This document shows positions 34,377 through 53,579 of a stretch of DNA of 64,000 bases, piece after piece; position 1 is the first letter of the stretch; each line of letters begins with the position of its first letter. The notes under the pieces were generated by a model. It made no database searches. It was not told where the DNA came from and was given only the letters and a program-made list of their open reading frames with translations. The stretch spans positions 57,778 through 121,777 of the forward strand of contig JAGCNV010000058.1 of assembly GCA_017645765.1 (NCBI GenBank), read 5' to 3'. A program made the position numbers and the translations under genes. The stretch is from a bacterium (GTDB lineage: Bacteria; UBP6; UBA1177).

Positions 34377-34859
34377 TCAGTCTTTTACCCACTCTTCAAC
34401 CAAATCGGTCGTCATCGTGCCGGTGTGAACTTTCTTTATCACGCCGTCCTTAACGAGAAGTGTTGTCGGGAGAACTGAAATATAGAGATCTTCAAAAAAT
34501 TCATCCTGAGCAATGACACTTTTGAAATCCGGTGAAACTTCACGGTAGACTTCGTATTTGAAGACAGGTTTTATCACGCCGTAAACCTGATGTTTTGCTG
34601 CAACTTTATTGAGTTCCGGCATTTCAGAAATGCACGCTCCGCACCACGTTGCCCAGATGTTAAGAATGACCTCGCCTTTTGATAGATCCAGAGAGGTTCT
34701 CCGGCCGGTCTGAGGATCAACACCTGAAATTTCGCGGAGTTCGCGCCCCGGAAGGAATATAGACGCGCCGAAATACGAAAACACATTGAACAGAAGGACA
34801 ACTATAACAAGTGAAAAAATGATAATGTGAAAAATTTTGCTGCTCTTTTTTTCTTCCAT
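34377..34859 (-). CDS. TlpA/ResA-like membrane-anchored thiol:disulfide oxidoreductase (thioredoxin fold)
   Basis: WCGAC active-site motif (NIWATWCGACISEMPEL). N-terminal TM anchor. 160 aa. Start overlaps the stop of the upstream glycosyltransferase gene. Confidence 0.8.
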   Translation of the reverse strand: MEEKKSSKIFHIIIFSLVIVVLLFNVFSYFGASIFLPGRELREISGVDPQTGRRTSLDLSKGEVILNIWATWCGACISEMPELNKVAAKHQVYGVIKPVFKYEVYREVSPDFKSVIAQDEFFEDLYISVLPTTLLVKDGVIKKVHTGTMTTDLVEEWVKD

Positions 34860-37087
34860 TACTTTATATTTACGTTGAAAGTTCCCAAAATAAAGCGTTT
34901 CTGACCGTCGTTGAAAGATTCCTTATCGACATCCATTCGCGTATTTTCTTCGTAAAATCCGGTATATATCTTGACTCCGCCGCCTGGATGCGCTTTAGGC
35001 ACATCTACTTTAAAAGTGTCTTTTAGAATCATTCCGGGAGTCCATTTCGTTGTCGGCAGATAGCCCTGCTGCGGATAGTCGTCAAGCTTGAACGAGTGCG
35101 GAAGCGCGCCACTGTAAACGTCGAAGTGGAAGAAAACTTTCCAGTTCTTATCCATCTCTTTCAAAACTTTGTAGTAAAGCGTGAGTTCGATCTCTTCACC
35201 CGGATCGAAACGCTGCTTGTTGATGTCGTAACCGATGATTTCAATGGTTTTTCCGCCCAAAGTTCCGTTGATTTTCTTGATGTTTTTCGGGATCTGCGAC
35301 TCTTCGAGGAGATTTTTCCTCCATTTGTCGGAAAGATCGGCGTTTTTATCCTGCATTGAAGCGGTAAACATCTCGATTTCCATGTATGTGTCGACAGCAT
35401 CGTCAGCAACTTTCCTTATCGGAATGCCCGGTTTGTCGAGAAGCGCCGCGCGAAGTTCTGAAACTTTGTCCTTTTTAGTCGTTATAAAAACTGTATTATT
35501 GGGATTTTTTTCAATAAGTTGTTGAATTTGCTCGGCTTTCGTGTAGCGGTGAAGTTGTTCGTCAAGACCGAGATAAAAATACATTGACCTGTTTTTCCAG
35601 TTGTGGAAATCGACCATTTTATCCCCAGGCTTTTTCATTTCGAAATATTTTTCAACAAGGTGCTTCGGTGTGAAAACTTCAAGCATATTCGGCACCCAGA
35701 CAAAATTTATATATCCTGACCAGACGACTGCGACAAGTGTAAAAGCGGCTGCTGAAATCTCGAAAAGGATCTTTTTGTCAGGTTTGACTGCCGGAAGAAT
35801 GATAAAAAACGCCATCAGCGGAACAAAAACCATAAGCATCGGAACCGGATCGAAAACACGCCCGAACCAGGTCTGGACGTGGTGAGTCGTTATGAGATAA
35901 ATCATGTCTGCATAGTTGAAACCAGTTCCTATATCCTTCCCTATCAGAATCAGAAAAAACGCCGAAACAACGCCGATAACGGTATAAACTTTCGAGAGTT
36001 TCTCGCTTCTCAAAAGATCGACGAACCCTTCAGCAAGAATCATCACCATGAAAGGAACTACCGGAAAAACGTAGTGCGGAAACTTTGTCGCAGCAAGGGT
36101 GAAGAAAAGGAAAAGAAAGAAAAACGTGAGGACTGTAAAAGCCAGGTCTTTGTTTTTTCTGACTTTTCCAGCCGCTGAAAAAAGTGCTGGAATCAGGAAC
36201 GCGATCCACGGGAAAGCACCGAGCGAAAGCTGCCAGATGTAAAATTCAAACGGACCGTCGGGCTTGTCGATCTTTCCTTCAAGCCTGCCGAAGTGATGCT
36301 CCATGAAAAATTCTTTATAAAACGGCTCTCCGTGCTTTATACCCATGTAGAGATACCACGGAAGCGAAACGACAAGGAAAATCGCAAGTCCTTCGAAAGG
36401 TCTGAGAGAAAAAATAAAATCGGTCACATCCTTTGCAACTGCCTTGAATCCTTTGGAATAATCAAGAGTTGCGATCATCCAGAGAATCATTGCCGCAATC
36501 GGGAAACATATAGCGAGCAACCCTTTCGTGAGCATTCCGAGCCCCATGAAAAGATAGGAAAGACGGATCAGTTTTTTGTCTTTGTCGCGCTGCCCGATGT
36601 AGAGAAAACCGATTGAACCGGTCAAAAACGTCACAAAAGTTATATCCCACATGAACTGCCGCGTGATCATGTAAGTATAAGGCGTGAAAACCGCGACAAA
36701 CGCAGCAACAAGGGCTTTCAGCGGGTCTTTAAGAATTTTCTCGGCGATAAAATGAATAAGAAGAACGAAAAATATGCCGTTTATAGCGAAAGGAAGCCTG
36801 AGTGCGAGCTCTGTCGGACCGAAAATCTTCATAAAAGGAAAAACCATCCAGAAACAGAAAATCGGCTTCGACCAGAAGTTGTGCTTTCCAAGATATATCG
36901 GATCAAGGAACCAGTCCCAGGAATTATTCGCCATCATCTCCATCGCGACTCTGCCGTAATGAGGCTCCCACTGCCCCAGAACCGGATAGCTTCCGAGAAG
37001 AGGCAGAAAGAAAAGTGCCGAAAGAATAGCTAAAAAAATGCGCGGATGATCAAGAATCACCGCCTGAAGTCCTTCTTTTTTATCCAT
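34859..37087 (-). CDS. GT39/GT83-like (PMT/ArnT-type) integral-membrane glycosyltransferase with ~300-aa C-terminal extracytoplasmic domain
   Basis: N-terminal ~450 aa polytopic region with the ArnT/PMT-like first-loop signature (...GQWEPHYGRVAMEMMANNSWDWFLDPIYLGKHNFWSKPIF...). AAGGAG RBS 6 nt before ATG 37087 (MDKKEGL...); the track ORF extends 36 codons upstream. Confidence 0.7.
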   Translation of the reverse strand: MDKKEGLQAVILDHPRIFLAILSALFFLPLLGSYPVLGQWEPHYGRVAMEMMANNSWDWFLDPIYLGKHNFWSKPIFCFWMVFPFMKIFGPTELALRLPFAINGIFFVLLIHFIAEKILKDPLKALVAAFVAVFTPYTYMITRQFMWDITFVTFLTGSIGFLYIGQRDKDKKLIRLSYLFMGLGMLTKGLLAICFPIAAMILWMIATLDYSKGFKAVAKDVTDFIFSLRPFEGLAIFLVVSLPWYLYMGIKHGEPFYKEFFMEHHFGRLEGKIDKPDGPFEFYIWQLSLGAFPWIAFLIPALFSAAGKVRKNKDLAFTVLTFFFLFLFFTLAATKFPHYVFPVVPFMVMILAEGFVDLLRSEKLSKVYTVIGVVSAFFLILIGKDIGTGFNYADMIYLITTHHVQTWFGRVFDPVPMLMVFVPLMAFFIILPAVKPDKKILFEISAAAFTLVAVVWSGYINFVWVPNMLEVFTPKHLVEKYFEMKKPGDKMVDFHNWKNRSMYFYLGLDEQLHRYTKAEQIQQLIEKNPNNTVFITTKKDKVSELRAALLDKPGIPIRKVADDAVDTYMEIEMFTASMQDKNADLSDKWRKNLLEESQIPKNIKKINGTLGGKTIEIIGYDINKQRFDPGEEIELTLYYKVLKEMDKNWKVFFHFDVYSGALPHSFKLDDYPQQGYLPTTKWTPGMILKDTFKVDVPKAHPGGGVKIYTGFYEENTRMDVDKESFNDGQKRFILGTFNVNIK

Positions 37088-37253
37088 AAAAAACTCCTTA
37101 AAAACAACAAAGCCGCAAATTATAAGGTATAGAAAGTGCAAGTCAAAAAAACACAATTTCGTCAGTTTGAGCGTAGCTAAAAATCTGCGAGTCAATTTAT
37201 TGATTTAAATATTTTTTCATGTATAAGCAAACGAATTTATCTGATATTTAAAA

Positions 37254-37922
37254 ATGAATGTCTGTTTAATTTGCGGAAACATAACGGAAAATCAAAATTT
37301 TTTATGCAAGGAATGTGCAAAATTTGCACTTTTCTGCGAAAGAAGATGTCCTAAATGCGGGAATTTCACGCTGACTCCGGATGAGCCGGAATGTTTTTCG
37401 TGCAAAGGAAAAAAGCTGCACTTTGACAAAATTTTTTCACTTTTTATCTACAGCGGAAGCATTTCAAAACTGATTTCGGAAATGAAATACGGCAAAGTCA
37501 GAAGCATCGCCGAAATTTTAGGGAGATACCTTGCCGAAAACGCACATTTCGAACTTATTGAAGGACGCACCGTCATCTTTCCGCCGATGAGATTTCTGGA
37601 TAAACTTCTCCGATCTTTTAATCAGGCTGAGATATTCGCAGACAAAGTCGCAAAAAGGCATGGTTTGAAATTTGACCCGAAATTATTGAAAAAGATCCGC
37701 AGGACCAGACATCAGGCGGGGCTTGACTACGAAGAAAGAACGGAAAATCTGAAAGATGCTTTCGCCATCACCCGAAGCGTGAAAGGAGAAAAATTTCTGA
37801 TCGTGGACGATGTCTGCACGACAGCATCAACTATTGAAGAAATCGCGAAACTTTTGAACAAAAACGGGGCGAAAAGCGTGAACGGGCTCACACTTGCAAG
37901 GAGAACCCCCTACTTCGGATGA
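37254..37922 (+). CDS. ComF/GntX-family phosphoribosyltransferase-domain protein
   Basis: N-terminal 4-Cys zinc ribbon (CLICGN...CKEC...CPKCGN...CFSC). C-terminal PRTase motif FLIVDDVCTTASTIEE. Confidence 0.8.
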   Translation: MNVCLICGNITENQNFLCKECAKFALFCERRCPKCGNFTLTPDEPECFSCKGKKLHFDKIFSLFIYSGSISKLISEMKYGKVRSIAEILGRYLAENAHFELIEGRTVIFPPMRFLDKLLRSFNQAEIFADKVAKRHGLKFDPKLLKKIRRTRHQAGLDYEERTENLKDAFAITRSVKGEKFLIVDDVCTTASTIEEIAKLLNKNGAKSVNGLTLARRTPYFG

Positions 37923-38858
37923 TTAGATAAACAGCATCGAGCAGCCGTTGGATTTTTTGCTTTCTTCTTTGCTTTCAGCTTCAGAATCGGTTGCAGGTGC
38001 CTCGGAATCGTCACCGTCGACCGGAACTTCAGTATCAGCTGAATCGTCAGCCGGAGCATCGGTGTTTGCAGTGTCAGTATCTTCATCGGAACCGGTATCA
38101 GAGACATCGGTATCACCTTCGTCAGGATCTGGGGAAATGGGATCATCGCCGTCTTCGGACGGATTTTCATCATCACCGTCTGAATGAGCATAGAGACCGC
38201 ATTCGTCACAGCATTCTTTGTTTTCGCAGCTTTCTGCCGTTTCAATACACTCGAAATAGCCTTTGTAGTTTTCTTCGCGGATATCGTCTCTAGAACAGCA
38301 GATTGTGAGCATCTGCGCATTTATATCCTCTCCGGAGGGAATATCGAGAACCGCCTCAAGTTCCTCGTCGTTAAGCGGTTCAAAACAGGAATTTGCAAAG
38401 GTTTTTACATACGAAAGGCAGATATTGAGAACTTCTTCGTCAGTGCAGACTATTCTCGGAGTCGCGAGCTCGGTACCGCATTCTTCGACAAGCGTGCTGT
38501 CGCAGACACCCTCTTCGAAAGTTGCAGTTCCGAACCTTCTTCTGTCGAAGCCATAGCACCAGCATTCATAGTCGCCGCTCTGTTCCAGAACACATTCTCC
38601 GGCTTCGTTTTTGCATTTGAATCCTGCATTTTTACAAATTTCATTGGCCTCCGCTTTGCATTCGTCCTCTGTCGGGAGAGCCGATGCAGATGTTTCGCTG
38701 GAAGAGCTTGTATCGTCATTGCAGTAGCATTCTTTGGATAATGAACCAGCAGAGAGAGTGTAAGTACATCCCCCTTTTTCAGCTTCACAAGTTAAAGTTT
38801 CCGCAAAAAGTGTTGTTGCAGCTGCAAGCATTGCAACCAAAACAAGTAATTTTTTCAT
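37923..38858 (-). CDS. Secreted Cys-rich protein with highly acidic C-terminal tail, hypothetical
   Basis: GGAGG RBS, then MKKLLVLVAMLAAATTLFAE signal peptide. >25 Cys. C-terminal ~80 aa is D/E/S/T-rich. Confidence 0.55.
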   Translation of the reverse strand: MKKLLVLVAMLAAATTLFAETLTCEAEKGGCTYTLSAGSLSKECYCNDDTSSSSETSASALPTEDECKAEANEICKNAGFKCKNEAGECVLEQSGDYECWCYGFDRRRFGTATFEEGVCDSTLVEECGTELATPRIVCTDEEVLNICLSYVKTFANSCFEPLNDEELEAVLDIPSGEDINAQMLTICCSRDDIREENYKGYFECIETAESCENKECCDECGLYAHSDGDDENPSEDGDDPISPDPDEGDTDVSDTGSDEDTDTANTDAPADDSADTEVPVDGDDSEAPATDSEAESKEESKKSNGCSMLFI

Positions 38859-39019
38859 TTCAGCCTCCATAAGTTAAAAAAACAAAAACAAATAGCATAT
38901 ATTTAGTTGCACAAAATAGCGATTTTTCTGACTCAAAAATTCAAAAAAAAAAAAATCTGATTTTATTAAAGAATTTTTACAATATTGTTATTTATAGAAG
39001 CCACAGAGAACCGCCGATA

Positions 39020-39106
39020 TTATTTCACCTTTTCCGCCGCTTCGAGAACCGCTTTCGCAAGCTGGTCGGCGCATGAAGTTCCTTTGGATCCAGGCTTGCC
39101 TTCCCA
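39020..39106 (-). pseudogene. Remnant duplicate of the 3' end (last ~21 codons) of the TSCPD-domain gene at 42016-42276
   Basis: 39026-39088 is ~90% identical to 42013-42078. It reads in frame (-) as WEGKPGSKGTSCADQLAKAVLEAAEKVK* versus authentic ...GFKGTSCADQLAKAVLEAAEKVRK*. An in-frame stop lies immediately upstream and there is no start codon. Confidence 0.7.
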
Positions 39107-39158
39107 TTAGTTTTCCTTATAATTTTTCGTTTGTTTTAGTTTTTTTCAGAGGTGATAC

Positions 39159-40418
39159 ATGAAAAAAATTTGTTTTATTCTCATCATCTTTTCACTGTTT
39201 GTTTTTGCCGGCTGCGGTGATTCAAAAAAGGAAAACAGGAACGAAACTCCCGATTCGGAAGCAGCTGCGGCTGACGAGGATGATGCAGACGACGATACTA
39301 CCGACGAAGACATCTCTGATGATGATTCTGAAACCGATGAGGAAGAACCAGATCCCGAGAAAAAAAGAGGAACTCTCGGCGGCAGATGTTATCAGAACGG
39401 GACCTGCAATACCGGACTTGTCTGTGATACTGACAACGACATCTGCATAAAGAAAAAAGAGGAACCGGCTGATGACGAGCCTGATGACGACCTGTATGAA
39501 AGCGAACATCTTGAAACTCCGAAAAATCTCAATTTGGGCAAAATATGCACGAATCAGGACAAATGTTACAATGAAAAAGAGGAAATCCCGTGTCCTGCGC
39601 CGGGTAAAGATTTTTACGGTCAGGATGCTCAGTACAAGGACAAATGCGCCAAACAAAAATTTCAGTTCAGGGTAATTTCCGGAGAACAAGTCGTTGAGGA
39701 TGTCAACACCGGATTTAAATGGAGAAAGGTGCCGATGCACAAAACATACAGCCTGGGAGGCGCCATGAAACACTGCGACAATATCAGTTTTGCAGATGAC
39801 AGATGGGATCTGCCGACCCCGCAGCAGCTTCTCACTATCATTGACAACGGCAGGGATCATCCGGCTTTGAACACAGAGTTTTTCCCTGAAATGCCTGACA
39901 GTGACGATTCCTACTTGTGGACAGGTAATTTTTGTTATTTCAACTTCAGTTTCTATTGGACTGCCGGAATTCATGACGGTGAAATCATGCACATGAATGA
40001 CGAAACGACCCAATATTTTATGTGTATGAAAGGGAAAAGTTTCCCGGCACCTTCTTTCACAACTTCCGTTGTAAACGAAGATGAAATAGTAAAGGATAGT
40101 GTTTCAGGGCTCACATGGCAGAAAAATTATGAAAACAATTTAACATGGAAGGAAGCTCTTGCCTACTGCGAAAATCTTGAGTATGCAGGTTTTGACGACT
40201 GGAGACTACCCAATAAAAACGAACTTGCGACGCTTATCAACTATGAAGCAGAAGCTCCAGCTTCCGATTTCCCGGATATAGCAGGACGTTATTTCTGGAC
40301 ATCTTCTTCGTATGTCAGTGATCCTGCCTATGCATGGGCTCACTATTTCTATGACGGTTCGATATGGCGTGTCAAAAAAACAGATGATGACTTTCTTGTT
40401 CTCTGTGTAAGGAACTGA
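39159..40418 (+). CDS. Lipoprotein with two DUF1566 / 'Fibrobacter succinogenes major paralogous'-type domains
   Basis: MKKICFILIIFSLFVFAGCG lipobox and an acidic linker. Motifs ...DDRWDLPTPQQLLTI... and ...LTWKEALAYCENLEYAGFDDWRLPNKNELATLIN... (W..A..YC..L...G..DWRLP...EL). Confidence 0.75.
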   Translation: MKKICFILIIFSLFVFAGCGDSKKENRNETPDSEAAAADEDDADDDTTDEDISDDDSETDEEEPDPEKKRGTLGGRCYQNGTCNTGLVCDTDNDICIKKKEEPADDEPDDDLYESEHLETPKNLNLGKICTNQDKCYNEKEEIPCPAPGKDFYGQDAQYKDKCAKQKFQFRVISGEQVVEDVNTGFKWRKVPMHKTYSLGGAMKHCDNISFADDRWDLPTPQQLLTIIDNGRDHPALNTEFFPEMPDSDDSYLWTGNFCYFNFSFYWTAGIHDGEIMHMNDETTQYFMCMKGKSFPAPSFTTSVVNEDEIVKDSVSGLTWQKNYENNLTWKEALAYCENLEYAGFDDWRLPNKNELATLINYEAEAPASDFPDIAGRYFWTSSSYVSDPAYAWAHYFYDGSIWRVKKTDDDFLVLCVRN

Positions 40419-40420
40419 GA

Positions 40421-42019
40421 TTAATTTTCCGGCTTCCAGTCAAATCCCCACGGCTTTTTCGGATTTTCCGGATTCGGTGTGTAATCAATCAACGGACATT
40501 TGTCGGGATAAAAATCACAGTAACATTCAAGATCCCGGACAACCAGATCTTCGATGGTAAGAAAAACCAGTTTGTTCTGATAAATAAAACCGTCATTTTT
40601 CTTTATTTTGAGATCGAAAGGTTCGTCAAAACAAACAAGTTTTTTATCAGAAAAACGTAAAATGCAGTAGTCGTATATGTCAGAATTATAATTTTCAGGA
40701 TCTTCAGGATCGGAAGTTCCCCTTTTCACAGCCATATATTTTCCTTCCTCATCGATAGTGTGAAACAATGTCCATGAACTGCCGAGGTTGTAAAGTTCGG
40801 AATAGTTTATGTCGTTTGTATCTGAAATATCTGCCGCAAATATACGGCAGTTTCCGTCTTCGCTTTTGCAGTTGCGGTAAACTATTGTGTTTTTATCTTT
40901 GAAAACCGGCTCAGTACCTTCTGCAACCTGAAAACAGCTTGAATCTCCGATTTCAAGATCGCATAAATGAATTCTACCTTTGCGGTCTTCATAAACAAGC
41001 AGATTGTCATTAAGCCACGGATATTCGACCCTGCGTGGATTGCCGTAGAGTTCTTCCCTTTGGTACTGGAGTTCTTTCCAGTTGTCCCATTCTCCTATTT
41101 TGGTATAGAAGAGTCTTAAATCGTATGAATCGTCCTCAAAGTAAAGGCTTGCAAAAAGATAACTTTCGCTGGCACGGACATCAACAATCATTGTCGGATC
41201 ATGTTCCAGCTTAAGTGCAAAACCATAAGTATCAGTCTCTTTGTCGTAATAGTACAGGTAGAAATAATCCTGACCGAAATAAGGGCTGGTTTCATCAATA
41301 GTTGAACTGACGCGGTCATCGTAAGTTGCAATAAAATGATATTTTTTATTCTGCCATCCGTCCATATAGGCTCTGCCGTATCTTTCGACTTTGCGGCTGT
41401 TCAGATCATAAATGTATGTTCCTCCGCTCTGCCATGAGGAATAGTCGTGCAAACTATACACCACCTTGCCTTCGAACAGGTTGAACGCCAGAGAACCGCT
41501 GTAGTTGCCGTACCAGTATCCGGGTGTAAGCACAGCATCGCACTGAAAAGATCCGACACCGTCCTCTTTGTCTTTCGGAACCTTTTTGGAATCAGCAGGG
41601 ATGATGATCGGTTCAAAAGGATAGTTCTCTGCACATAAATCAAAAGGCAGAGGCTCACACTGCAAACCGCACCTTTCCGACCACAGAATTTTTACATTTT
41701 CAGGATCCTTCGATGGTGTCGGAGCATCGCCGTAATAATAGTATGCGACATTGTAATTCGCTTCGCCGTAAGTTTCAAAATAGGGATTTTCTGAATGATC
41801 TTCCGCATCTTCGTCAGTGATTCCGGCATCTTCGACAGAATCCTCTTCTTCAAAGTCTGCATCTTCGAAATCTGTATCTTCATCAACAGTTTCGGTATCA
41901 TCGGGATCAAGATCAGCATCAGGAACAATGTCGGAATCGTTTTCCGCTTTGCTGCCGGATGAACATGAAACAAACAAGGCAAACATTAAGAAGATGCTGA
42001 TTGTTAGAATTCTTTTCAT
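40421..42019 (-). CDS. Hypothetical lipoprotein with acidic linker; aromatic-rich (Tyr/Trp/Asp) body, possibly a beta-propeller
   Basis: MKRILTISIFLMFALFVSCSSG lipobox. The start ATGA overlaps the stop of the TSCPD gene. 532 aa with no known motif. Confidence 0.65.
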   Translation of the reverse strand: MKRILTISIFLMFALFVSCSSGSKAENDSDIVPDADLDPDDTETVDEDTDFEDADFEEEDSVEDAGITDEDAEDHSENPYFETYGEANYNVAYYYYGDAPTPSKDPENVKILWSERCGLQCEPLPFDLCAENYPFEPIIIPADSKKVPKDKEDGVGSFQCDAVLTPGYWYGNYSGSLAFNLFEGKVVYSLHDYSSWQSGGTYIYDLNSRKVERYGRAYMDGWQNKKYHFIATYDDRVSSTIDETSPYFGQDYFYLYYYDKETDTYGFALKLEHDPTMIVDVRASESYLFASLYFEDDSYDLRLFYTKIGEWDNWKELQYQREELYGNPRRVEYPWLNDNLLVYEDRKGRIHLCDLEIGDSSCFQVAEGTEPVFKDKNTIVYRNCKSEDGNCRIFAADISDTNDINYSELYNLGSSWTLFHTIDEEGKYMAVKRGTSDPEDPENYNSDIYDYCILRFSDKKLVCFDEPFDLKIKKNDGFIYQNKLVFLTIEDLVVRDLECYCDFYPDKCPLIDYTPNPENPKKPWGFDWKPEN

Positions 42020-42276
42020 TTTCTCACCTTTTCAGCCGCTTCGAGGACCGCTTTCGCTAGCTGGTCGGCGCATGAAGTTCCTTTGAATCCGCATTCGTTG
42101 CCGAGAAGTTTTGCCGCGATCTGGTCAGCCGTCCAGCCGTCAACAAGTTTGGAAACGGCTTTCAGGTTTCCGTTGCAGCCGCCGATGAATTTGATGTTCG
42201 TGACGACTTTGTTTTCGTCGATGTCGAAAAGGATCATTTCTGAGCATGTCCCGCTCGTTTCATACTGATACTGCAT
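42016..42276 (-). CDS. Small TSCPD-domain protein
   Basis: 86 aa with ...KFIGGCNGNLKA...GNECGFKGTSCADQLAKA..., the TSC(P/A)D signature and Cys pattern of stand-alone TSCPD (PF12637-like) proteins. Confidence 0.65.
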   Translation of the reverse strand: MQYQYETSGTCSEMILFDIDENKVVTNIKFIGGCNGNLKAVSKLVDGWTADQIAAKLLGNECGFKGTSCADQLAKAVLEAAEKVRK

Positions 42277-42286
42277 TTTTCCTCAA

Positions 42287-43678
42287 TTAAATTATATAGT
42301 TGGAAAGTTTTTCGTTTTCGCGTGCCGACTTATACCATTTGTTGACATAAGCCTTGTCTATTTTGATTTTCGTGCCGCTTTTTTCGGAAGCATTGAACGA
42401 AATATCCTCAAGCAGGATCTCCATAACAGACTGCAGGCGTCTCGCGCCGATATCCTGCGTCGTGCTGTTCTCTTCAAATGCGATTGCGGCGATTTCCTCT
42501 ATTCCCGACGGAGTGAAATTGAGAGTGACATTTTCCGATTTCATAAGCTCAGCATACTGCACGGGAAGAGAGTTTTCAGTTTCGGAAAGAATGCGGACGA
42601 AATCTTTTTTCGTAAGAGATCTGAGCTGTGCCTTGATCGGGAAACGCCCCTGAAGTTCGGGGATCAGATCTTCAGGAGAATTCATGTGGAATGCTCCGGC
42701 CGCAATGAAAAGTATGTGATCTGTACGTACAGGTCCATACTTTGTATTGACAATACACCCCTCAACTATTGGTAAAATATCACGCTGAACGCCTTCACGC
42801 GAAACATCCGGTCCGTTCGCAGAGCCGCTTGCGATGATCTTGTCGATCTCGTCGATGAAAATAATTCCGTCTTCTTCTACCCATTCAAGAGCCTCTCGGA
42901 CGATCTTCTCGTGGTCAAGCAGCTTTTCCGCCTCAGTCTGGAGAATGTATTCGAAAGCCTCTGAAACAGGCATCGTCTTCTCTTTTTTCCCTTTATGCTG
43001 AGGCGCATTAGGCGGAAAAATGTTGCTCATCATGTCCTTTATCATCGAGTCGATCTCCTCGATCCCGCCCGAGCCGCTGATAACTTCGAAAACCGGGATC
43101 GGAGCGCTCGGCTTTATCGGAACACTCACTTTTTTGTCGTCAAGCTTACCGTTTTCAAGCTTGTCCGCCATTTTTTTACGGTAGTCGCTCTGCCTTTTGT
43201 ATTTTTCTTCGTAATCGGCATCGTCTTTGGGAAGTTTTTCAGGGTTCGGAACGTTGAGCAGATCGAGAATTTTGTCGACCGCGACACTTTCAGCCTTTTT
43301 GTAGACGATCTCGGTTTCGATTCTTTTTTTCTCGTTGACTGCGTGTTTTACGAGGTCTTTGATCATCGATTCTACATCCCTGCCGACATATCCGACTTCG
43401 GTGAATTTCGTCGCCTCGACCTTGAGGAACGGTGCGTTCGAGATCTCGGCAAGCCTTCTTGCTATCTCGGTTTTGCCGACCCCGGTCGGTCCCGACATCA
43501 GGATATTTCTCGGAGTTATCTCTTTACGCAGAAAATCATCCTCTATTTTCGAGCGTCTCCAGCGGTTTCTGAGTGCGACGGCCACCGCCTTTTTCGCCTC
43601 ATCCTGCCCGATTATGAAGCGGTTGAGCTCTTCGACGACACGCTTGGGAGTCAATTCTTCGACTGAATATTTGCTCAT
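42287..43678 (-). CDS. hslU: ATP-dependent protease ATPase subunit HslU
   Basis: [21 protein letters not shown] ... [19 protein letters not shown] Walker A. 463 aa. The inserted I-domain is present. Confidence 0.95.
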
Positions 43679-44223
43679 TTCTTTTCTCCGTTAAGCTTGA
43701 TTTCTTCAAAAGTGAAATTCGAATTTGTGTAGATGCAGATGTCCGACGCTATTTTGAGCGAACGCAGAGCGACTTCGTGAGCCGCAAGTTTCGTGTTTTC
43801 GCTGAGTGCGACCGCCGCTGCGTATGCGTAGTTTCCGCCAGAACCGATCGCGATGATATTCTTTTCAGGTTCGAGAACGTCTCCGCTTCCAGAAATCAGA
43901 AGGGTCTCTTCGCTGTCGGCAACAAGAAGAAGCGCTTCGAGTTTACCTAAAACTCTGTCCTTTCTCCACGCCTTGCTGAGCTCGACCGCCGATTTTTTCA
44001 GCTGGTAGTTATATTTTTTAAGTTTTTCCTCAAAAATCTCGAAAAGTGTCACCGCGTCGGCTGTTGAACCTGCGAAACCGGCAACAATGCGCCCTTCCGC
44101 AAGTCTTCTCACTTTGCGGGCATTCCCTTTGAGAACGGTGTTGCCGAAAGTCACCTGCCCGTCGCCTGCGATGATTACCGAAGACTTGTCCCTGACGCAG
44201 ATAATGGTTGTTCCTTCAAACAT
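43675..44223 (-). CDS. hslV: ATP-dependent protease subunit HslV
   Basis: [41 protein letters not shown] with the N-terminal Thr nucleophile. 182 aa. Overlaps hslU by 4 nt. Confidence 0.95.
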
Positions 44224-44240
44224 ATAAACCTCCGAATTTA

Positions 44241-45137
44241 TTAATGATTTCTTTCACATTTATCATCAGGCTCAACATGGACCATAACATCGATGACATC
44301 GTGGTTTTTGAAAAGTTCGTCTTCGACTTTGTGCCCTATCGCATGCCCTTCGCGGACTGTTATGTCCGGATCGACCTGAATATGAAGATCGACCTGTATT
44401 CCGCTTCCGTATTTTCTCGTTCTGCACTTGTGAATGCTTTTTACCCCTTCGACGCTCTTTGCCGCGCACTCGATAGCCTCGCACTCGTGCTTGTCCGCGC
44501 CCGCATCGGTGAGTTCAAGAACCGAAGACCATGAAATTTTGAACGCAGTCCAGACGATAAAGAGCGAAACCACAATCGCGCCGATATTGTCGATATAAGG
44601 ATAAGCAGGGAATTTCATTGAAATTATTACCGCGAGAGCAGCCGGGACCGAGCTTATAGCGTCACTTCTGTGATGCCATGCGTTTGCAACTACAGCCAAC
44701 GATTTCAGCTTTTTTCCGAAATAGTGGGTATAGTGATAGAGAATTTCTTTTACAAGAATTGAAACTATTGCGGCGGCGAATGCGATCCATGACGGAGCTT
44801 CGTCGGGCTCTTCAAAAGTCACAACCGCGTTATGCCCGATCCCGTAAGCGACGAAGAAAAGCGCGAGTCCGATGATCACCGTGATAAAAGTCTCTATTCT
44901 TTTATGGCCGTGAGGATGGCTTTCGTCAGGCGGCGCGCTCCAGAATGATGAACCGACGATTACGGCGATATCCGTTACCGAGTCGCTCAGACTGTGGATA
45001 CCGTCGGCTATGACTGTCTGGCTGTTTCCGAAATATCCGGCAACGATCTTGAAAACCGTCAGAAAAAAGTTGGCTAAAAGTCCGACAGCAGTGACGCTTT
45101 TTATCTTTTTTTCGGTTGAACAGTCGTTATTGTTCAT
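44241..45137 (-). CDS. Cation diffusion facilitator (CDF) family metal efflux transporter
   Basis: [15 protein letters not shown] ... HGHKRIETF and 6 TM helices plus a C-terminal cytoplasmic domain, typical of CzcD/FieF-type transporters. Confidence 0.9.
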
Positions 45138-45640
45138 ATTTTCTCGCAGTAATAGACAAAAATTTTCTGCTGCCCTTCTTTCAAAGTCCCTTTGCAGTAA
45201 ACAGCGTTTTCTTTTGAAGAAAAGTTCAATGAATACATGGTGTTGCCGTGATTAGCAAGTTCAAAGACAGCATTTGTCACCTTATTTTTTGCAACTTCGA
45301 AAGGCTCTTTGACGACCGCCTTCCCGTCTTCTACCGAACAGTTGAGAAGAATCGGAGCTTTAAGGATATTTTTGGATTTTTCCTCTTTTTCTATCTCCTT
45401 TTTTTCCTCTTCGGCAGCGTCGTTTTCCGGAAAAATTGCGAAATCGTGCTTCAAAATACCGGCAACGTTTTCTTTAACATCTTCCAATGTTTCAATATCA
45501 TTTTTTTCGGCGTAATCGCCCGCTATATTTGCAAAATAAAGGATCGCTCCGAACAGGACAAGAGCGAAAGCTCCCCACAGAAAGTGTTTGCGCCTTACAG
45601 ACAAGTAATTGTTATTATTGCCATTTTCCCGCATTTTCAC
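45134..45640 (-). CDS. Hypothetical membrane-anchored protein
   Basis: 168 aa with one N-terminal TM helix and a Glu/Lys-rich segment. Start/stop overlaps with its neighbours indicate operon membership. Confidence 0.45.
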   Translation of the reverse strand: MKMRENGNNNNYLSVRRKHFLWGAFALVLFGAILYFANIAGDYAEKNDIETLEDVKENVAGILKHDFAIFPENDAAEEEKKEIEKEEKSKNILKAPILLNCSVEDGKAVVKEPFEVAKNKVTNAVFELANHGNTMYSLNFSSKENAVYCKGTLKEGQQKIFVYYCEKI

Positions 45641-45657
45641 CTGTCGGACAAAAACGT

Positions 45658-46014
45658 TTATTTAGAATCGAGCTGCGAAATAAACTCTTTTATAATTTTT
45701 CTGTCTTCGTCACTCAGATCGATAAATTTTATCCCCATTCCCGGAATCGAAGAATCAATTTCGGTAAAAATCGAGTATTTGTCGTCACTTCTGGCGACTA
45801 CGCCTTTCACCTTGATCTCTTTTTCGGTTCCGGGAAGCGTGAATGAAAGTTTGAAAACCTGTCCCGGCTCCCAGAGCAGCGAAGATTTTACAAAAATACC
45901 GCCCTCGCTGAGATTGGCGGTGTCGAATTTGATGCTGATGTCGTCAGTATCTTCCGAAAGAGAGATTTTGAGCGAAATCGGAGCTCTGCCGAAAACTCTT
46001 TGTTTCTTTTCCAT
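45658..46014 (-). CDS. Stand-alone PilZ-domain protein (putative c-di-GMP receptor)
   Basis: QRVFGRAP (RxxxR-like) near the N-terminus and NLSEGGIFV (D/NxSxxG) are the two PilZ motifs. 118 aa. Confidence 0.7.
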   Translation of the reverse strand: MEKKQRVFGRAPISLKISLSEDTDDISIKFDTANLSEGGIFVKSSLLWEPGQVFKLSFTLPGTEKEIKVKGVVARSDDKYSIFTEIDSSIPGMGIKFIDLSDEDRKIIKEFISQLDSK

Positions 46015-46022
46015 AAAAACCT

Positions 46023-46370
46023 CTAATGAACGGGCTTGTTGTGAGAATCGACAAAAACGATTTTCGGTTCGGGAATCTTCTCACCTTCCGAAACATACCT
46101 GTGCGAAGCGATGATCACAAGATCGTTCTTCTTTACAAGATGAGCCGCCGCGCCGTTGATGCAGATGCAGCCTGAGCCCGCCTCGCCTTCGATGACATAA
46201 GTCTCAAGCCTTGCACCGTTCGTAACATCCCAGATGTCAACAAATTCAAACGGCTGCAAATCTGCAACCGCCATCAATTTTCTGTCTATCGTGATACTTC
46301 CCTGATAGTTTATATCGGCTCCGGTAACGACCGCGCGATGAATTTTCGATTTCAAAAACTTGCCGAACAT
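46023..46370 (-). CDS. panD: Aspartate 1-decarboxylase
   Basis: [29 protein letters not shown] with the Gly-Ser self-cleavage site. 116 aa from the internal Met. GAGGA RBS. Confidence 0.9.
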
Positions 46371-46504
46371 TGCATCCTCAAACATACACAGCAAAAAACG
46401 GCTGTATATATAGTAATTCAATTAAAGTTGTCAATCCGATTTTCTGTTTTTTATTTTAATTTTAAATATAATATTCTGTTTTTTGTGAATCGAAGAGGTT
46501 CAAA

Positions 46505-48064
46505 ATGACAAAAATCGTGCCGTTTTCCACCGTTTTCAGCACTAAATTTTCATTTTTTCTTCTCTTTTTCGCGGCAGTTTTTCTTTTTTCAAGCTGCGGC
46601 AGCAGCACAAAAATAGAACCTGTTTCAAATACCGATGAAGATTCGACCGATGCTGACTTCGACATGGATGAAGAAGAAGACTGGGAAGAAGATGAAGAAA
46701 TGGAAGACGAGGAAGATTTGGACAGTGATGACACCGACGACAGCGAAACTTCAACAGAAGAAAAACCCGCTCGGCAACCTACACGCGAAGAGTGTATTAA
46801 CGCCGGAGGAACATGGGATGAAGAAGAGAGCAGACATTGTTACAGAGACAAAGACTGCGACGAAAAACCGGAAAACGCCAAATGGAGCGGCTGGTATAAT
46901 GATACATACCGGCAGTATTACGAAAACGGTGAATGGAGCGAACCTCCTGTAACAGAATACAACGACGACAAACAATTCGATGAATGTGATTTCGTTTGCC
47001 GGAAAAATTATTCATGGGACGGAACGGAATGCAAAGATCTGTGCGATCCCGATCCCTGCGCTGCAGTTGAGCATTCAGACGATATCTGCATCACAACTCC
47101 CGGCCTTTACTCCTGCGGTTGCGCCGACGGATACAGATGGAATGACGGAGAGTGCGTAGAAATCACTTCAAAACTGAGTTTGGGCAACATCTGCACCTGC
47201 CAGTCGGAATGCTATAAAGATATTTTAGAAACTAACGCAGAGTGCACTGCCGAAGGAAAGGAACTTTTCGGGCAGGATGCCGTCTATGCCGCAGCGGGAC
47301 GCTGCATCCGACAGAAATATTCGATCAAAGAAACCGGCATCGAAAATGAAGATATCATACTTGACAACAATTTGAAACTTGAATGGCAGCGTACCCTTTC
47401 AGGAGAAAAATACGATTGGGAAACTGCCGTAAATTATTGTAAAAACCTTGAATACGGAGGATATACCGACTGGAGGGCTCCGACTCCTAAAGAACTTTTA
47501 AGCATTCTTGGAGGACGCTGCGACAGGGAAACCCCGGACTTCTATTTCAAAGACAGCGGACTTTTCTTAACCTCAAAACTTTACGCAGGCAATTCAAACC
47601 AAGTCTGGTTAGGTGAAAACAGCTTCGGCAACATGTCATATTTTTCGCGTAACCTCGCTATCATCAGCGTCCGCTGCGTCAGAGGTGAAACGATTCCGGA
47701 AGACACTTTTACGGTCTCGGTTGTAAACGGTGACGAGATCGTAACAGATTCAGCCACAGGTCTCGTCTGGCAAAAAGAGGATGTTTCCGGTAAAAGATGG
47801 AGAGAAGCTCTCGAATACTGTGAAAACCTGACTTATGCAGGATACTCCGACTGGAGGCTTCCCAACATAAACGAACTTGCTTCCCTTGCAAATTATGACA
47901 AATACAGCCCTGCTTCCGATTTTCCAGGCATATCCCAAGAAAATTACTGGTCATCCACAACTGATATTCCCATGATTGTTTCGGCATTGAATATATTTTT
48001 CCATACTGCCGAATTGAATTATGCATCCAAAGATACTTTCTATTATGTCAAATGCGTCAGATAG
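46505..48064 (+). CDS. Lipoprotein with acidic linker, Cys-rich region and two DUF1566 / Fib_succ_major-type domains
   Basis: Signal peptide plus ...FLFSSCGSS lipobox, then a D/E-rich linker. Motifs ...WETAVNYCKNLEYGGYTDWRAPTPKELLSI... and ...RWREALEYCENLTYAGYSDWRLPNINELASLAN.... Confidence 0.75.
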   Translation: MTKIVPFSTVFSTKFSFFLLFFAAVFLFSSCGSSTKIEPVSNTDEDSTDADFDMDEEEDWEEDEEMEDEEDLDSDDTDDSETSTEEKPARQPTREECINAGGTWDEEESRHCYRDKDCDEKPENAKWSGWYNDTYRQYYENGEWSEPPVTEYNDDKQFDECDFVCRKNYSWDGTECKDLCDPDPCAAVEHSDDICITTPGLYSCGCADGYRWNDGECVEITSKLSLGNICTCQSECYKDILETNAECTAEGKELFGQDAVYAAAGRCIRQKYSIKETGIENEDIILDNNLKLEWQRTLSGEKYDWETAVNYCKNLEYGGYTDWRAPTPKELLSILGGRCDRETPDFYFKDSGLFLTSKLYAGNSNQVWLGENSFGNMSYFSRNLAIISVRCVRGETIPEDTFTVSVVNGDEIVTDSATGLVWQKEDVSGKRWREALEYCENLTYAGYSDWRLPNINELASLANYDKYSPASDFPGISQENYWSSTTDIPMIVSALNIFFHTAELNYASKDTFYYVKCVR

Positions 48065-48072
48065 GAGGAAAG

Positions 48073-50205
48073 ATGAAAAAAATTTTTATTCTCATTCTCG
48101 TTTTTCTATTTTTGTCATGCAGTAACAGCACAAAACACACTGCAGACAATGATTCCTATGTCGAAAATCATGATGCCGATGATATCGGATTTTCTGACGA
48201 AAACGATACGGAAACTGTCAATGAAGATATTGAAAACACCGAAAGATGCTATACCTGGACGGATGATGTTCCCGAAAATACAGACGATGAATATCCGAAA
48301 AATGACGATAATGAATATGAACCTCTTCAAGGAATATGCCTCGAAGAACCTTGCAAAAATGTTGAAAACGCGACAGGCAAGTGCCTTACGAAAGGTGAAA
48401 ACGGCGACTATGTCTGCGTCTGCAAAGAAAATCATGTCTGGTTTCCCGATAAAAAAAGCTGTGAACCGATAAGCTCTTTCAAAGGTTTGTCGTGCACCGG
48501 TCAGACAAAATGCTACGACAACGAAAAAGAGATCCCATGCCCCGAAGAGGGCGAACCTTTCTTCGGTCAGGATGCAAATTATGCCGAAAACGGATCGTGC
48601 CTTCCCCAGAATTTCACAATAAAACACTACGAATCCGGCACGACAGTTATTGACAACAATTCCAAACTTGAATGGACACGGCAGGTCTATGCAGTACAAA
48701 ACCATTACGTCAGGATTGTTGGAGGATATTACGACTGGAGAACACCGACTTTTCAGGATTACAACTCGATAATTGACAGCGGAACTTTTGCTCCGACCAT
48801 AAACGAGGCATACTTTCCCAACACTCCTTTAGACATTTTCGTTACAGAATCTTACGAGTATTTGAATCATACAGGACCTCAGGAGGGCTACTATTACTAT
48901 GTTATAAAAGGAATGAACTTCAAAACAGGACTCTCAGAATACAACACTTATGAATATGGAATCGGTATTCCGGAAACATTTAACTTCAGAAGTGTCCGAG
49001 ACCTGCCTGAAAAACCTGAATCCTGCGGAGTTAAACTGCAGGATGACGAATACAAACTCGTAAATCTTCTTCCGCAGAAACTTCTGCTTATCAGAACACC
49101 TGAAGAAGGCAAGAACTGGGAAGAAGCTCTTGCATACTGCGAAAACCTGACTTACGCTGGTATATCAGACTGGAGACTGCCCAACAGAAACGAAGCCTAC
49201 TTCAGCATATCTAAATTACGCAGTCAATATGAATCCCTTTTATGCTGGTCATCTACGACATATCCGGGAAACCCAACTCAAGCACTTTTCTACTCTGCCC
49301 CCGACTACATATTCACAGCCGGCAAAATCACAGGAAAAGCAAACGCAAACTGCTGCGTAGCCTTTGATCCGTGTCCTGAAGGTAAAATGTGGACCGGAGA
49401 AAAATGCACTTCATCCGAAGGTATCGCATTTAAAGATGACGAATGCGGATGCATTGAAGGATATACTTGGGAAGATTCGCATTGTGCAAAAACATGCAGC
49501 GACGATTTATGCAAAGACAAACCCCATTCAACAGGACTCTGTCTGCAAACGATTGACGACGGTGAATCTCAGAAAGTTAAGTGCCAGTGCGAAGAAAACT
49601 ATTTTCTGAACGAAAATTTCGAGTGCATAAACCCGTGCGACGCCGATCCGTGTTCAGGCAAGGAAGAATACGACGGAAGCTGCGTTCCGACAGGACTTAC
49701 CACTTTCACATGCGGCTGCAGTACAGGCTACTATCCCAAATCAAACAACTGTATTCCGGTAAAATATAATGACTGTTACACCGAGTATAATGATGATGCC
49801 TGCATCAACGATGTTAGCAATATAATGTGGTCTTCAATATCCGACGGCATTTTAACATGGAAAGATGCAAAAAAACATTGTGACGATCTTGAAGAAGCAG
49901 GATATAACGACTGGAGACTTCCTAAGGTCGAAGAACTCTGGACTTTTGCGAGATCGTGCAACAGTATTCCTAAAGAATCCTGCGAAGCCAGCGAAAAAAA
50001 CTGCTGCCTTTCCGAAGAATGCATCGCACAGTGTAAATGTAAGATTTATCGGGAACCCAACCCTGTTGACTATTTATGGTCATCATCCTTCAAAATAGAC
50101 GATCCCCAAAAAGTCATAATCTTTTACAAATATTACGCTATTCTGCAATTCTTCGACATAAAAACAGATGCCGCCAAGGTCAAATGCGTAAGGAATATTG
50201 AGTGA
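48073..50205 (+). CDS. Large lipoprotein with DUF1566 / Fib_succ_major-type domains and EGF-like Cys-rich modules
   Basis: AGGAGG RBS, then MKKIFILILVFLFLSCSNS lipobox. Three DUF1566-like motifs (...NWEEALAYCENLTYAGISDWRLPNRNEAYF...; ...LTWKDAKKHCDDLEEAGYNDWRLPKVEELW...). Four EGF-like units (CGCIEGYTWEDSHC, CQCEENYFLNENFEC, CGCSTGYYPKSNNC). The track ORF start overlaps the upstream gene. Confidence 0.75.
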   Translation: MKKIFILILVFLFLSCSNSTKHTADNDSYVENHDADDIGFSDENDTETVNEDIENTERCYTWTDDVPENTDDEYPKNDDNEYEPLQGICLEEPCKNVENATGKCLTKGENGDYVCVCKENHVWFPDKKSCEPISSFKGLSCTGQTKCYDNEKEIPCPEEGEPFFGQDANYAENGSCLPQNFTIKHYESGTTVIDNNSKLEWTRQVYAVQNHYVRIVGGYYDWRTPTFQDYNSIIDSGTFAPTINEAYFPNTPLDIFVTESYEYLNHTGPQEGYYYYVIKGMNFKTGLSEYNTYEYGIGIPETFNFRSVRDLPEKPESCGVKLQDDEYKLVNLLPQKLLLIRTPEEGKNWEEALAYCENLTYAGISDWRLPNRNEAYFSISKLRSQYESLLCWSSTTYPGNPTQALFYSAPDYIFTAGKITGKANANCCVAFDPCPEGKMWTGEKCTSSEGIAFKDDECGCIEGYTWEDSHCAKTCSDDLCKDKPHSTGLCLQTIDDGESQKVKCQCEENYFLNENFECINPCDADPCSGKEEYDGSCVPTGLTTFTCGCSTGYYPKSNNCIPVKYNDCYTEYNDDACINDVSNIMWSSISDGILTWKDAKKHCDDLEEAGYNDWRLPKVEELWTFARSCNSIPKESCEASEKNCCLSEECIAQCKCKIYREPNPVDYLWSSSFKIDDPQKVIIFYKYYAILQFFDIKTDAAKVKCVRNIE

Positions 50206-50208
50206 AAT

Positions 50209-52584: not shown

Positions 52585-52727
52585 TTTCACCTCGCTGGCA
52601 CAATAAAACGGCAAAGTAAATAAGCGCGGTTTTGAGAAAGTCAACCTCGGGCACGATTTTTTTGAACATCTTGAATTTTCGTAAAGTTATGTTAAAAAGC
52701 AAGCCTTGTCTGCTTAAGGAGGAATTC

Positions 52728-53579
52728 ATGGCGGAAAAAACGGGAATCGTTATGGAAGGCGGCGCAATGCGCGGAATGTTCACAACCGGCGTGCTCGATG
52801 TTCTTATGGAAAACAACATTACTTTTGACGGTGCGATCGGAGTATCAGCCGGTGCGACTTTCGGCTGCAATCTGAAGTCGAAACAGATCGGAAGAGCGAT
52901 ACGCTATAATCTGAAATATGCCGGTGACAAGCGCTACTGCAGCTTTCATTCGCTTTTCACTTCGGGCGATCTTTACAATGTCGATTTCTGCTACAATCAG
53001 ATTCCGAACAAACTCGATCTGTTTGACTACGAAACCTACATCAACAATCCGATGGAGTTTTATGTCGTTGTCACCGATGCAGACACCGGAACCACACATT
53101 ACAAAAAATTAGTCGACTGCCGCGAAGAAGATACTCTCTGGATGAGAGCTTCAGCCTCGATGCCCGGTGTTTCAAGACCTGTTGAAATAGAAGGAAAAAA
53201 ATATATTGACGGCGGCTCGACCGATTCGATCCCGCTCGAATACTTCGAAAGTATCGGCTTTACAAAAAATGTTGTAGTCCTCACCCAGCCACGCGATTTT
53301 ACAAAACAGCCGATAAAACTTCTGCCGCTGATGAAAATCCTGCTCCGCAAATATCCTGCACTCATAAAGGCTCTGACCGTCCGCCACGAAGTCTACAACG
53401 AACAGAGACGCTATATTTTTTCACGCGAAAAAGATGGCGCGGCATTTATCATCTGCCCCGAAAAACCGCTCGGAATCAAAAGAACAGAAAAGGACAAAAG
53501 CGAACTCAAGCGAGTTTACGAAGAAGGACGCGCAGTTGCAATGAAATACCTTGAGGAAATCAAAAAATTCTTGTCGTGA
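52728..53579 (+). CDS. Patatin-like phospholipase
   Basis: AAGGAGG RBS. MEGGAMRGMFTTGVLD (GGxxRG oxyanion hole), GVSAG nucleophile elbow and DGG catalytic Asp motif (YIDGGSTDSIPL). Confidence 0.8.
   Translation: MAEKTGIVMEGGAMRGMFTTGVLDVLMENNITFDGAIGVSAGATFGCNLKSKQIGRAIRYNLKYAGDKRYCSFHSLFTSGDLYNVDFCYNQIPNKLDLFDYETYINNPMEFYVVVTDADTGTTHYKKLVDCREEDTLWMRASASMPGVSRPVEIEGKKYIDGGSTDSIPLEYFESIGFTKNVVVLTQPRDFTKQPIKLLPLMKILLRKYPALIKALTVRHEVYNEQRRYIFSREKDGAAFIICPEKPLGIKRTEKDKSELKRVYEEGRAVAMKYLEEIKKFLS

Follow-up and report, generated by a model that had tools for sequence, protein, structure and literature searches.

The locus described here raises the question of how two predicted lipoprotein genes came to stand between two copies of the 3' end of a third gene, and whether such a footprint is the mark of an integrase. 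The window, which is the whole stretch of 64,000 nucleotides (nt) that was analyzed (positions 57,778 to 121,777 of the forward strand of contig JAGCNV010000058.1, assembly GCA_017645765.1), comes from an uncultured rumen bacterium. In it, a 2.9-kb cassette with a gene for a DUF1566-domain lipoprotein (the DUF1566 gene) and a gene for a second, unrelated lipoprotein (the lipoprotein gene) adjoins a gene of the TSCPD family, and the last codons of the TSCPD gene recur on the far side of the cassette. The first-pass annotation had read these repeats as the attL/attR scar of an integrase or a degraded islet and had offered recombination-mediated gain of a cassette as an alternative; it is the alternative that fits the data best. 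The gap between the TSCPD stop codon and a comF-like gene is, judging from the contigs compared, a variable site that holds alternative whole-gene cassettes in closely related rumen bacteria. The explanation we prefer, with moderate confidence, is that the cassette is an islet resembling a minimal mobile element, which would have arisen in one founding event and then spread and been lost by homologous recombination through the flanks and through the TSCPD 3' repeat.

The duplication itself is real. Its two copies, at 39019-39091 (copy A) and 42018-42090 (copy B), align over 73 nt without a gap, are identical at 67 of the 73 positions (92%), and start 2999 nt apart; MAFFT alignment placed sharp boundaries of similarity at both repeat ends, and a degenerate 66-nt pattern matched these two sites only in the window and nothing in 100 shuffles, so that the similarity lies far above chance. 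The first-pass annotation was right that the repeat is present, but its pairing of 39026 with 42013 falls a few bases short and is out of register by 12 nt, the true register being +2999. Its other statements on the anatomy were borne out: copy A, translated in frame with TSCPD, gives GSKGTSCADQLAKAVLEAAEKVK* and lacks a start codon, exactly two genes lie between the copies, and the start of the lipoprotein gene is fused to the TSCPD stop codon through an ATGA overlap. The two open reading frames (ORFs) are convergent and cover 2,859 (98%) of the 2,926 bases of unique DNA between the copies, the rest being the 67-nt leader of the DUF1566 gene. The outer side of copy A is contiguous with an intergenic spacer and a gene for a cysteine-rich (Cys-rich) secreted protein, as in genomes with an empty site. 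On the inner side, TSCPD homology is lost sharply at 39091/39092: when the 67 nt upstream of copy A were aligned locally with TSCPD codons 1 to 62, the score was no better than that of shuffles (439/2000 and 380/2000 reached it). A longer, decayed second TSCPD gene past this junction was rejected, as local and anchored alignments stayed at shuffle level. That the whole structure is a chance similarity or an assembly artefact has a negligible probability; the general risk attached to metagenome assemblies is all that speaks for it, and the structure recurs across ENA, JGI, and NCBI, in no fewer than 12 independent contigs.

Relatives were sought with a genome scan for HslU and a protein search for TSCPD, and hslU and hslV served as the yardstick of backbone divergence. 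The HslU scan yielded only two close relatives, the rumen metagenome-assembled genome (MAG) RUG11946 (locus L002, HslU 97% identical to that of the window) and the goat MAG RGIG2292 (L001, 95%), the remainder being at most about 61% identical and mostly 44 to 53%. The protein search yielded 46 close TSCPD variants, whose contigs were sorted, together with L001 and L002, into arrangements; all of these relatives are metagenome contigs or MAGs. In arrangement T0 (L097-L102) the TSCPD stop abuts the comF stop. In T1, the empty site (L002, L088-L093, and L120-L122), TSCPD is followed by the spacer, the Cys-rich gene, and comF. T2 (L001) has the cassette, a decayed remnant of the TSCPD end, and then comF, whereas T3 (the window, L081, L084, L087, L104, and, as far as its contig extends, which is 17 nt into the spacer, probably L123) has the cassette, the remnant, the spacer, the Cys-rich gene, and comF. 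In T4 (L082, L083, L085, L086, and L103) the cassette and remnant are followed by aminotransferase and C25 peptidase genes. Each arrangement was seen in several independent assemblies from the three sources, except the cassette-only T2, which is L001 alone. Other lineages (L112 and L114-L116) have a guanylate cyclase gene or unknown genes downstream of TSCPD. TSCPD is the last gene of a conserved block, panD-pilZ-x-CDF-hslV-hslU-TSCPD, and the variety of what follows it marks its stop codon as the edge of that block. A scan of metagenomes with an alignment of the lipoprotein found at least nine loci; the homologues at 46 to 54% identity were not near TSCPD or hslU and are thus uninformative on this site.

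The site between TSCPD and comF was found in the window, L001, L002, L081, L084, L087-L093, L097-L102, L104, and L120-L122, and its content takes four forms (nothing, the Cys-rich gene, the lipoprotein pair, or both) on backbones that are 90 to 96% identical; the backbones of L087 (T3), L088 (T1), and L097 (T0) are 94 to 96% identical. The empty site expected by the first-pass annotation, with TSCPD followed by the Cys-rich gene without the 2.9 kb, does exist, in L002 and L088-L093, and the segment is thereby an insertion relative to close relatives. In L002, hslU is followed by an 85-amino-acid TSCPD (...EKVK, TAA), the spacer, the Cys-rich gene, and comF; by blastn, window positions 34381-39091 correspond to L002 16320-11590 and window positions 42018-53499 to L002 11662-3, and a single 73-nt stretch of L002 (11590-11662) aligns to both window copies. 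This layout had also been proposed as the ancestral one. It stands as an existing empty site, but the deeper ancestor was probably TSCPD abutting comF. The Cys-rich gene is itself a second optional cassette. In L001, TSCPD is followed by the lipoprotein gene, with the same ATGA overlap, the DUF1566 gene, and, 84 nt on, comF, without a Cys-rich gene.

A separate observation concerns L082 (10264-14261, compared with window 2669-5074 and 39030). There, the 62-nt remnant is followed by TTACAGAAAATGA, the aminotransferase and C25 peptidase genes, and an 801-amino-acid gene; the homologue of this last gene in the window (77.7% identity to window 4391-5068) is some 34 kb distant, and the breakpoint falls exactly at the remnant stop codon. 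The layout implies, on these alignments, a large rearrangement or a difference of about 34 kb between otherwise close genomes.

The remnants point to a single origin of the cassette. The inner junction, ...GGCAAGCY followed directly by GGATYCAAAGG beside the same 67-nt leader, is identical in all 12 other loci with a well-preserved remnant (among them L081-L087, L103, L104, and L123), and one shared junction argues for a single founding event. Any microhomology at this junction is at most GGA (about 3 nt). A remnant is present in every filled locus whose contig reaches it, and on its outer side it continues into the sequence that follows TSCPD in the matching empty type (the T1 spacer in T3 and comF in L001). 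The well-preserved remnants are not decayed: over 62 nt, copy A differs from the functional TSCPD ends of empty-site genomes at 0 to 4 positions (L123 versus L088, 0; L085 versus L002, 1; window versus L002, 4), and L087 differs from L001 at 3. The remnant of L001 is too decayed to display the inner junction. Its 84-nt spacer aligns to the leader and then keeps AAAAGCAAT and TTGGAAAATGA, pieces of its own TSCPD end, a residue that lies directly against the comF stop, in the position that TSCPD takes in T0; in 21 kb of L001, the 9-mer GGAAAATGA occurs on that strand only at the residue and at the real TSCPD end.

These remnants bear on the idea that the added piece is not the cassette but a 1.2-kb stretch of remnant, spacer, and Cys-rich gene, transferred from an empty-site-type donor into a cassette-comF genome by a one-off illegitimate join of two alleles. 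The window does contain 1.19 kb (37923 to about 39111) that L001 lacks, a stretch placed exactly between comF and the DUF1566 leader; no homology continues past the junction, and recombination of this kind, as far as PMC3240628 sets it out, pairs one homologous with one illegitimate end. L001 itself keeps a decayed TSCPD-end remnant against comF, however, and the L082 type has the remnant beside an unrelated gene; the duplicate thus belongs to the lipoprotein cassette and not to the Cys-rich segment, and we consider such a capture improbable.

The ancestry of the cassette departs from that of its surroundings. Between the window and L087, synonymous divergence (dS) is 0.90 to 1.33 in the backbone genes (CDF, hslV, hslU, and comF), against 0.25 in the lipoprotein gene and 0.56 in the DUF1566 gene. 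The corresponding backbone and lipoprotein gene values are 1.0 to 1.2 and 0.11 for L087 versus L104 and 0.25 to 0.41 and 0.02 for the window versus L082, whereas the pattern is reversed for L087 versus L001 (0.44 to 0.68 and 1.09). Because the discordance runs in both directions, constraint is not its cause. By these sequence comparisons, the cassette and its parts are exchanged horizontally between lineages, always at this locus. Copy B, by the same kind of comparison, travels with the cassette: in L087 and L118 the 5' part of TSCPD is that of the local lineage, but the cassette type takes over in the 73-nt block and the lipoprotein gene.

A single ancient insertion followed by vertical inheritance, in which the empty sites are secondary deletions between the 73-nt repeats and nothing moved horizontally, could draw on the single-origin junction, on direct repeats 85 to 97% identical that are able to mediate precise deletion, and on pairs of TSCPD proteins that are identical except for an ...RK or ...K end (P0005/P0010, P0008/P0021, and P0009/P0020; for the last pair no copy A was obtained, the filled contigs stopping within the cassette). 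It is a very improbable account, as cassette dS is 4 to 10 times below the backbone between lineages and above it in L087 versus L001, and the remnants equal current functional alleles. The nearly isogenic pair of filled L118 and empty L120, moreover, shows 5 differences across some 1,600 nt of hslU-TSCPD, the last 700 nt of which are identical, and then 14 in the final 93 nt; this divergence begins 15 nt upstream of the repeat, where a deletion would leave identity. Derivation of the empty alleles of L088 and L120 from L087 and L118 by simple recombination between the repeats was tried and rejected, since the sequences do not fit. Some repeat-mediated losses of the cassette probably also occur.

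The boundaries of the exchanged tracts carry the argument on mechanism. The window and L082 share a tract of about 2.7 kb at 96 to 100% identity, from mid-TSCPD to mid-DUF1566, and L123 is a mosaic within the cassette, with an L001-class lipoprotein gene and a window-class DUF1566 5' half and leader. Left tract ends lie inside hslU about 500 nt before TSCPD (L104), in mid-TSCPD (window versus L082), and about 15 nt before the repeat (L118 versus L120); right ends lie in mid-DUF1566 (window versus L082 and the internal mosaic of L123), at the inner junction (L087 and L123), and about 46 nt into the 5' end of the Cys-rich gene (L104). Variable endpoints together with mosaicism point to homologous rather than site-specific recombination.

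The main competitor is a decayed site-specific integrative element, an islet like a cis-mobilizable element (CIME), in which the repeats are attL and attR, the element's own integrase has been lost, and an integrase supplied in trans by a related element that targets the TSCPD 3' end would integrate and excise it. Much of the anatomy would suit it, including direct repeats made from a gene 3' end, an incoming copy that restores the gene, precise empty sites, an identical junction in three different downstream contexts, and, in L087 and L123, a change of ancestry in both copies at the block's left edge, as a fixed crossover site would produce; CIMEs by definition keep attL and attR and lose their integration genes (PMC5704250). 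The expected machinery and its traces were not found. The tables for the roughly 40 related loci, with flanks of about 7 kb, listed no recombinase, transposase, or relaxase gene, nor any excisionase or integrase in or near the loci, and the 2.9-kb segment, in agreement with the first-pass annotation that no integrase survives, contained no integrase or relaxase remnant, its two longest antisense ORFs having no NCBIfam match. No integrase-bearing element was found at the site; the cassette DNA had no blastn match among plasmids and phages, and a scan of viral contigs with the TSCPD 3' block (the repeat core) gave no match. The segment is almost wholly two intact cargo genes with no decay debris, and the tracts in L104, L118, and the window versus L082 end well outside the repeat. 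We regard the attL/attR reading, at which the first-pass annotation had arrived, as unlikely.

Other mobility features were also absent. No tRNA, tmRNA, or known RNA family that could be an integration target was found in the window. An integron gene cassette was rejected because the repeat has no attC-type hairpin, neither strand of either copy folding better than shuffles (z of -1.5 to +0.5). A transposon or insertion sequence was rejected as well: Pfam and NCBIfam searches gave no transposase, terminal inverted repeats of the transposon type were not found, the only end-to-end inverted repeat (39181-39204 and 41968-41991, 75% complementary) consists of two signal-peptide coding regions, and the duplication is 73 nt long and diverged.

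We therefore return to exchange by homologous recombination, with a mechanism that can be outlined as follows. The cassette bears at one end a duplicate of the final 73 nt of TSCPD, linked through the ATGA overlap to the lipoprotein start, and recombination within or near this shared stretch would bring it into a genome. TSCPD would then be completed by the imported copy (copy B), and the resident 3' end, displaced beyond the cassette, would persist as a nonfunctional remnant (copy A) that keeps its connection to its former downstream DNA. Spread and loss would proceed by RecA-type homologous recombination of imported DNA; in genomes with a different downstream context, the 73-nt repeat would presumably be the sole homology arm on the right. 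The cassette may owe its founding to a Campbell-type insertion of a circular fragment or to some other single illegitimate join. A bolder form, which we put forward only tentatively, is that the cassette is a self-sufficient, integrase-free "homology-armed" unit that, thanks to its replacement for the last 24 codons of a gene in a conserved housekeeping block, could enter any related genome by a single RecA crossover regardless of the downstream DNA, never inactivating its target, and leave through the same repeats.

Several points weigh against exchange of this kind. The change of ancestry in L087 and L123 falls, in both copies, at the left edge of the repeat or close to it, an outcome also expected of a fixed-site recombinase or of a single Campbell crossover; the donor tracts of L104, L118, and the window versus L082 start outside the repeat or well away from it. 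The founding event and the enzyme are deduced and not observed. Natural transformation is a plausible route of import, to which the comF homologue beside the site is the sole hint. No empty site for the aminotransferase context (L082 type) was present among the related loci found; its expected form is a TSCPD ending in ...ENYRK, TGA, and leading directly into CAACGGTCG. Since the relatives are metagenome assemblies and MAGs, some of the mosaicism and breakpoints could reflect strain-chimeric assembly, and dS values near 1 are close to saturation.

The anatomy has a counterpart in Campbell-type single-crossover ("ends-in") integration, in which a circular DNA with homology to the chromosome inserts so that the homology is duplicated as direct repeats around the insert, one copy adjoining the resident DNA upstream and the other the resident DNA downstream, and in which the event is reversible between the repeats. 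Such integration is known mainly from laboratory suicide plasmids. The arrangement of the window matches it exactly, with the differences that 73 nt is a short arm and that the circular intermediate is here a supposition.

The closest natural parallel lies in the minimal mobile elements of Neisseria (Saunders & Snyder 2002; Snyder et al. 2007), as they are described in PMC3082526. Going by that description, the two systems share a pair of conserved flanking genes (here TSCPD and comF) with differing whole-gene cassettes between strains, a lack of mobility genes, uptake attributed to homologous recombination in the flanks, and surface-protein cargo. Unlike the Neisseria elements as described there, the cassette brings 73 nt that replace the 3' end of the flanking gene, whose displaced end stays behind as a remnant; the insertion is consequently bracketed by direct repeats and can sit beside an unrelated downstream flank, as in the L082 type. 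The hosts here are also uncultured, and natural transformation is a possibility raised by the comF-like gene only. With integrative elements at gene 3' ends, of which the islands at ssrA in Dehalococcoides are an example (PMC3146451), and with their decayed forms, the CIMEs (PMC5704250), the locus has in common a target gene 3' end present as direct repeats, a target restored by the incoming copy, and precise empty sites. It differs from them in having no integrase here or in the relatives examined, no larger parent element that could be found, tract ends that vary outside the repeat, and a size of 2.9 kb that is wholly cargo. Homology-facilitated illegitimate recombination, which in the account of PMC3240628 joins one homologous and one illegitimate end, could yield the single nonhomologous junction between the DUF1566 leader and TSCPD codon 63; it would cover the founding join only and not the recurrence of the same junction in diverged backbones. 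The islet is thus a small accessory islet of a known sort, apparently exchanged by homologous recombination and leaving an att-like footprint, and not a new kind of system.

Table 1. Features of the variable site and its flanks in the window (positions are those of the window)
Feature	Position	Strand	Description
comF-like phosphoribosyltransferase gene	37254..37922	+	Right conserved flank; its stop abuts whatever lies to the right
Cys-rich secreted protein gene with 148-nt upstream spacer	37923..39018 (gene 37923-38870, spacer 38871-39018)	-	Second optional cassette
Copy A	39019..39091	-	Start-less displaced remnant: last 23 codons and TAA stop of the TSCPD gene
Leader of DUF1566 gene	39092..39158	+	The cassette's own 67 nt; left edge is the novel junction
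Cargo gene 1 (DUF1566 gene)	39159..40418	+	419-amino-acid predicted lipoprotein; signal peptide, two Lcl_C/DUF1566 domains
Cargo gene 2 (lipoprotein gene)	40421..42019	-	532-amino-acid predicted lipoprotein; signal peptide, acidic disordered linker, predicted C-terminal beta-propeller
TSCPD gene (TIGR03905), intact	42016..42276	-	Left conserved flank; Pfam TSCPD 1.5e-24, TIGR03905 3e-29
Copy B	42018..42090	-	Working TSCPD 3' end: last 24 codons, ...EKVRK, TGA
hslU	42287-43678	-	Conserved backbone
hslV	43675-44223	-	Conserved backbone

Both cargo proteins have the features of exported lipoproteins. The 419-amino-acid protein has a signal peptide with an FAGC lipobox (...FVFAGC), then an acidic low-complexity linker and two stretches that match Pfam PF07603 (Lcl_C; 7.4e-44), domains that are lectin- or adhesin-like; NCBIfam gave weak matches, far below the cutoff, to the Leptospira adhesin Lsa25 and a FimD tip adhesin. 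Its leader, kept in all cassette-bearing loci, contains a sigma-70-like TTGCCT-16-TATAAT at 39096-39123 that matches the consensus at 10 of 12 positions and is the best in the region, the number of such sites being not above that in shuffles. The 532-amino-acid protein begins with the signal peptide MKRILTISIFLMFALFVSC (...ALFVSC), again followed by an acidic low-complexity linker, and matched no family in Pfam or NCBIfam; its own family is small, with 105 clusters, every one of them annotated as hypothetical. An AlphaFold2 model built with 28 homologues is disordered to about residue 150 and has pLDDT values mostly of 70 to 94, with a few blocks at 50 to 67, over residues 155 to 525 or so, a region that is predicted to form a beta-propeller. 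Foldseek comparison of the model with the PDB retrieved WD40 proteins and oligogalacturonate lyase propellers, with target-normalized TM-scores of up to 0.58. From these features we infer that the cargo is a pair of surface-exposed binding proteins that vary between strains.

Gene callers begin the lipoprotein gene 30 nt downstream, for a product of 521 amino acids (window 41990-42019; compare L081 7291). The public annotation is probably 11 residues short, because the ATG on the TSCPD stop gives a canonical lipoprotein signal peptide; this start and signal peptide are conserved in L001, L087, and L082. The alignment of a further locus (L108, 3-1903) suggests tandem paralogues of this lipoprotein in other organisms: there, the gene for a distant homologue (48% identity to the beta-propeller lipoprotein) comes after the 3' end of a second copy, and the final 24 residues of that copy are 87.5% identical to the window protein.

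The stop codon of TSCPD differs between cassette-free and cassette-bearing genes. Cassette-free genes end in TAA or TAG, as AAAAAATAA or, with one codon fewer, as AAATAA (the empty-site type), whereas cassette-bearing genes all end in AGAAAATGA or in the 9-mer noted above for L001 (positions compared: window 42016-42018, L097 7259-7261, L002 11659-11661). One A-to-G change of the stop would thus also create the ATG of the lipoprotein gene. Protein length (86 versus 85 amino acids) was tried as a marker of filled and empty sites and failed, as the minimal arrangement also encodes 86; the difference is that of a TAA versus a TGA stop. TSCPD genes are found in other surroundings as well. In a more distant lineage (L094-L096, 7001-7261), TSCPD is 87% identical (MKYQYATRG...) and unlinked to hslVU, and an Lcl_C lipoprotein gene lies directly upstream of it in two of the three contigs, so that TSCPD and Lcl_C genes are neighbors in a second, independent arrangement. 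In L117 (5101-7278), which has a filled-type TSCPD, the place of hslV before hslU is taken by unrelated genes (a glycoside hydrolase fragment and RNase T), and the contig ends 17 nt past TSCPD; either a further rearrangement or a break in the assembly at the polymorphic site may account for this.

The Cys-rich gene and its spacer occur both in loci of the window type and in genomes with an empty site, and are missing where comF directly adjoins TSCPD or the lipoprotein cassette. The protein matched no family in Pfam or NCBIfam. It is 37% identical between the window and L104, where the adjoining comF is 88% identical, and by this comparison it evolves very fast. Its C terminus has a short Gly-Cys stretch and a hydrophobic tail (...NGCSMLFI), which might be a C-terminal sorting signal. 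The opposite end of the conserved block, upstream of panD, is a second variable site. In the window (46505-50205) it holds two Lcl_C/DUF1566 paralogues, and in relatives it holds a CotH gene, an MmeI-type restriction-modification gene, a UvrD helicase gene, genes for GAPDH and an MFS transporter, or an AAA/HTH set (regions compared: L082 979-2778, L088 1-2843, L100 420-2801, L114 1-2753, and L112 208-2574).

For the biology of these bacteria, the locus is a natural example of how small sets of surface-protein genes are gained, lost, and passed between species-level gut lineages without a dedicated mobility gene. Att-like direct repeats of a gene 3' end are, on their own, not evidence of an integrase, and a "homology-armed" cassette, if the tentative form of the mechanism were true, would mimic the biology of att sites without a recombinase. 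In rumen microbiology, the locus marks a strain-variable pair of surface lipoproteins, one a predicted beta-propeller and one lectin-like, which, from their sequence features, is likely to affect adhesion or recognition by phage or host.

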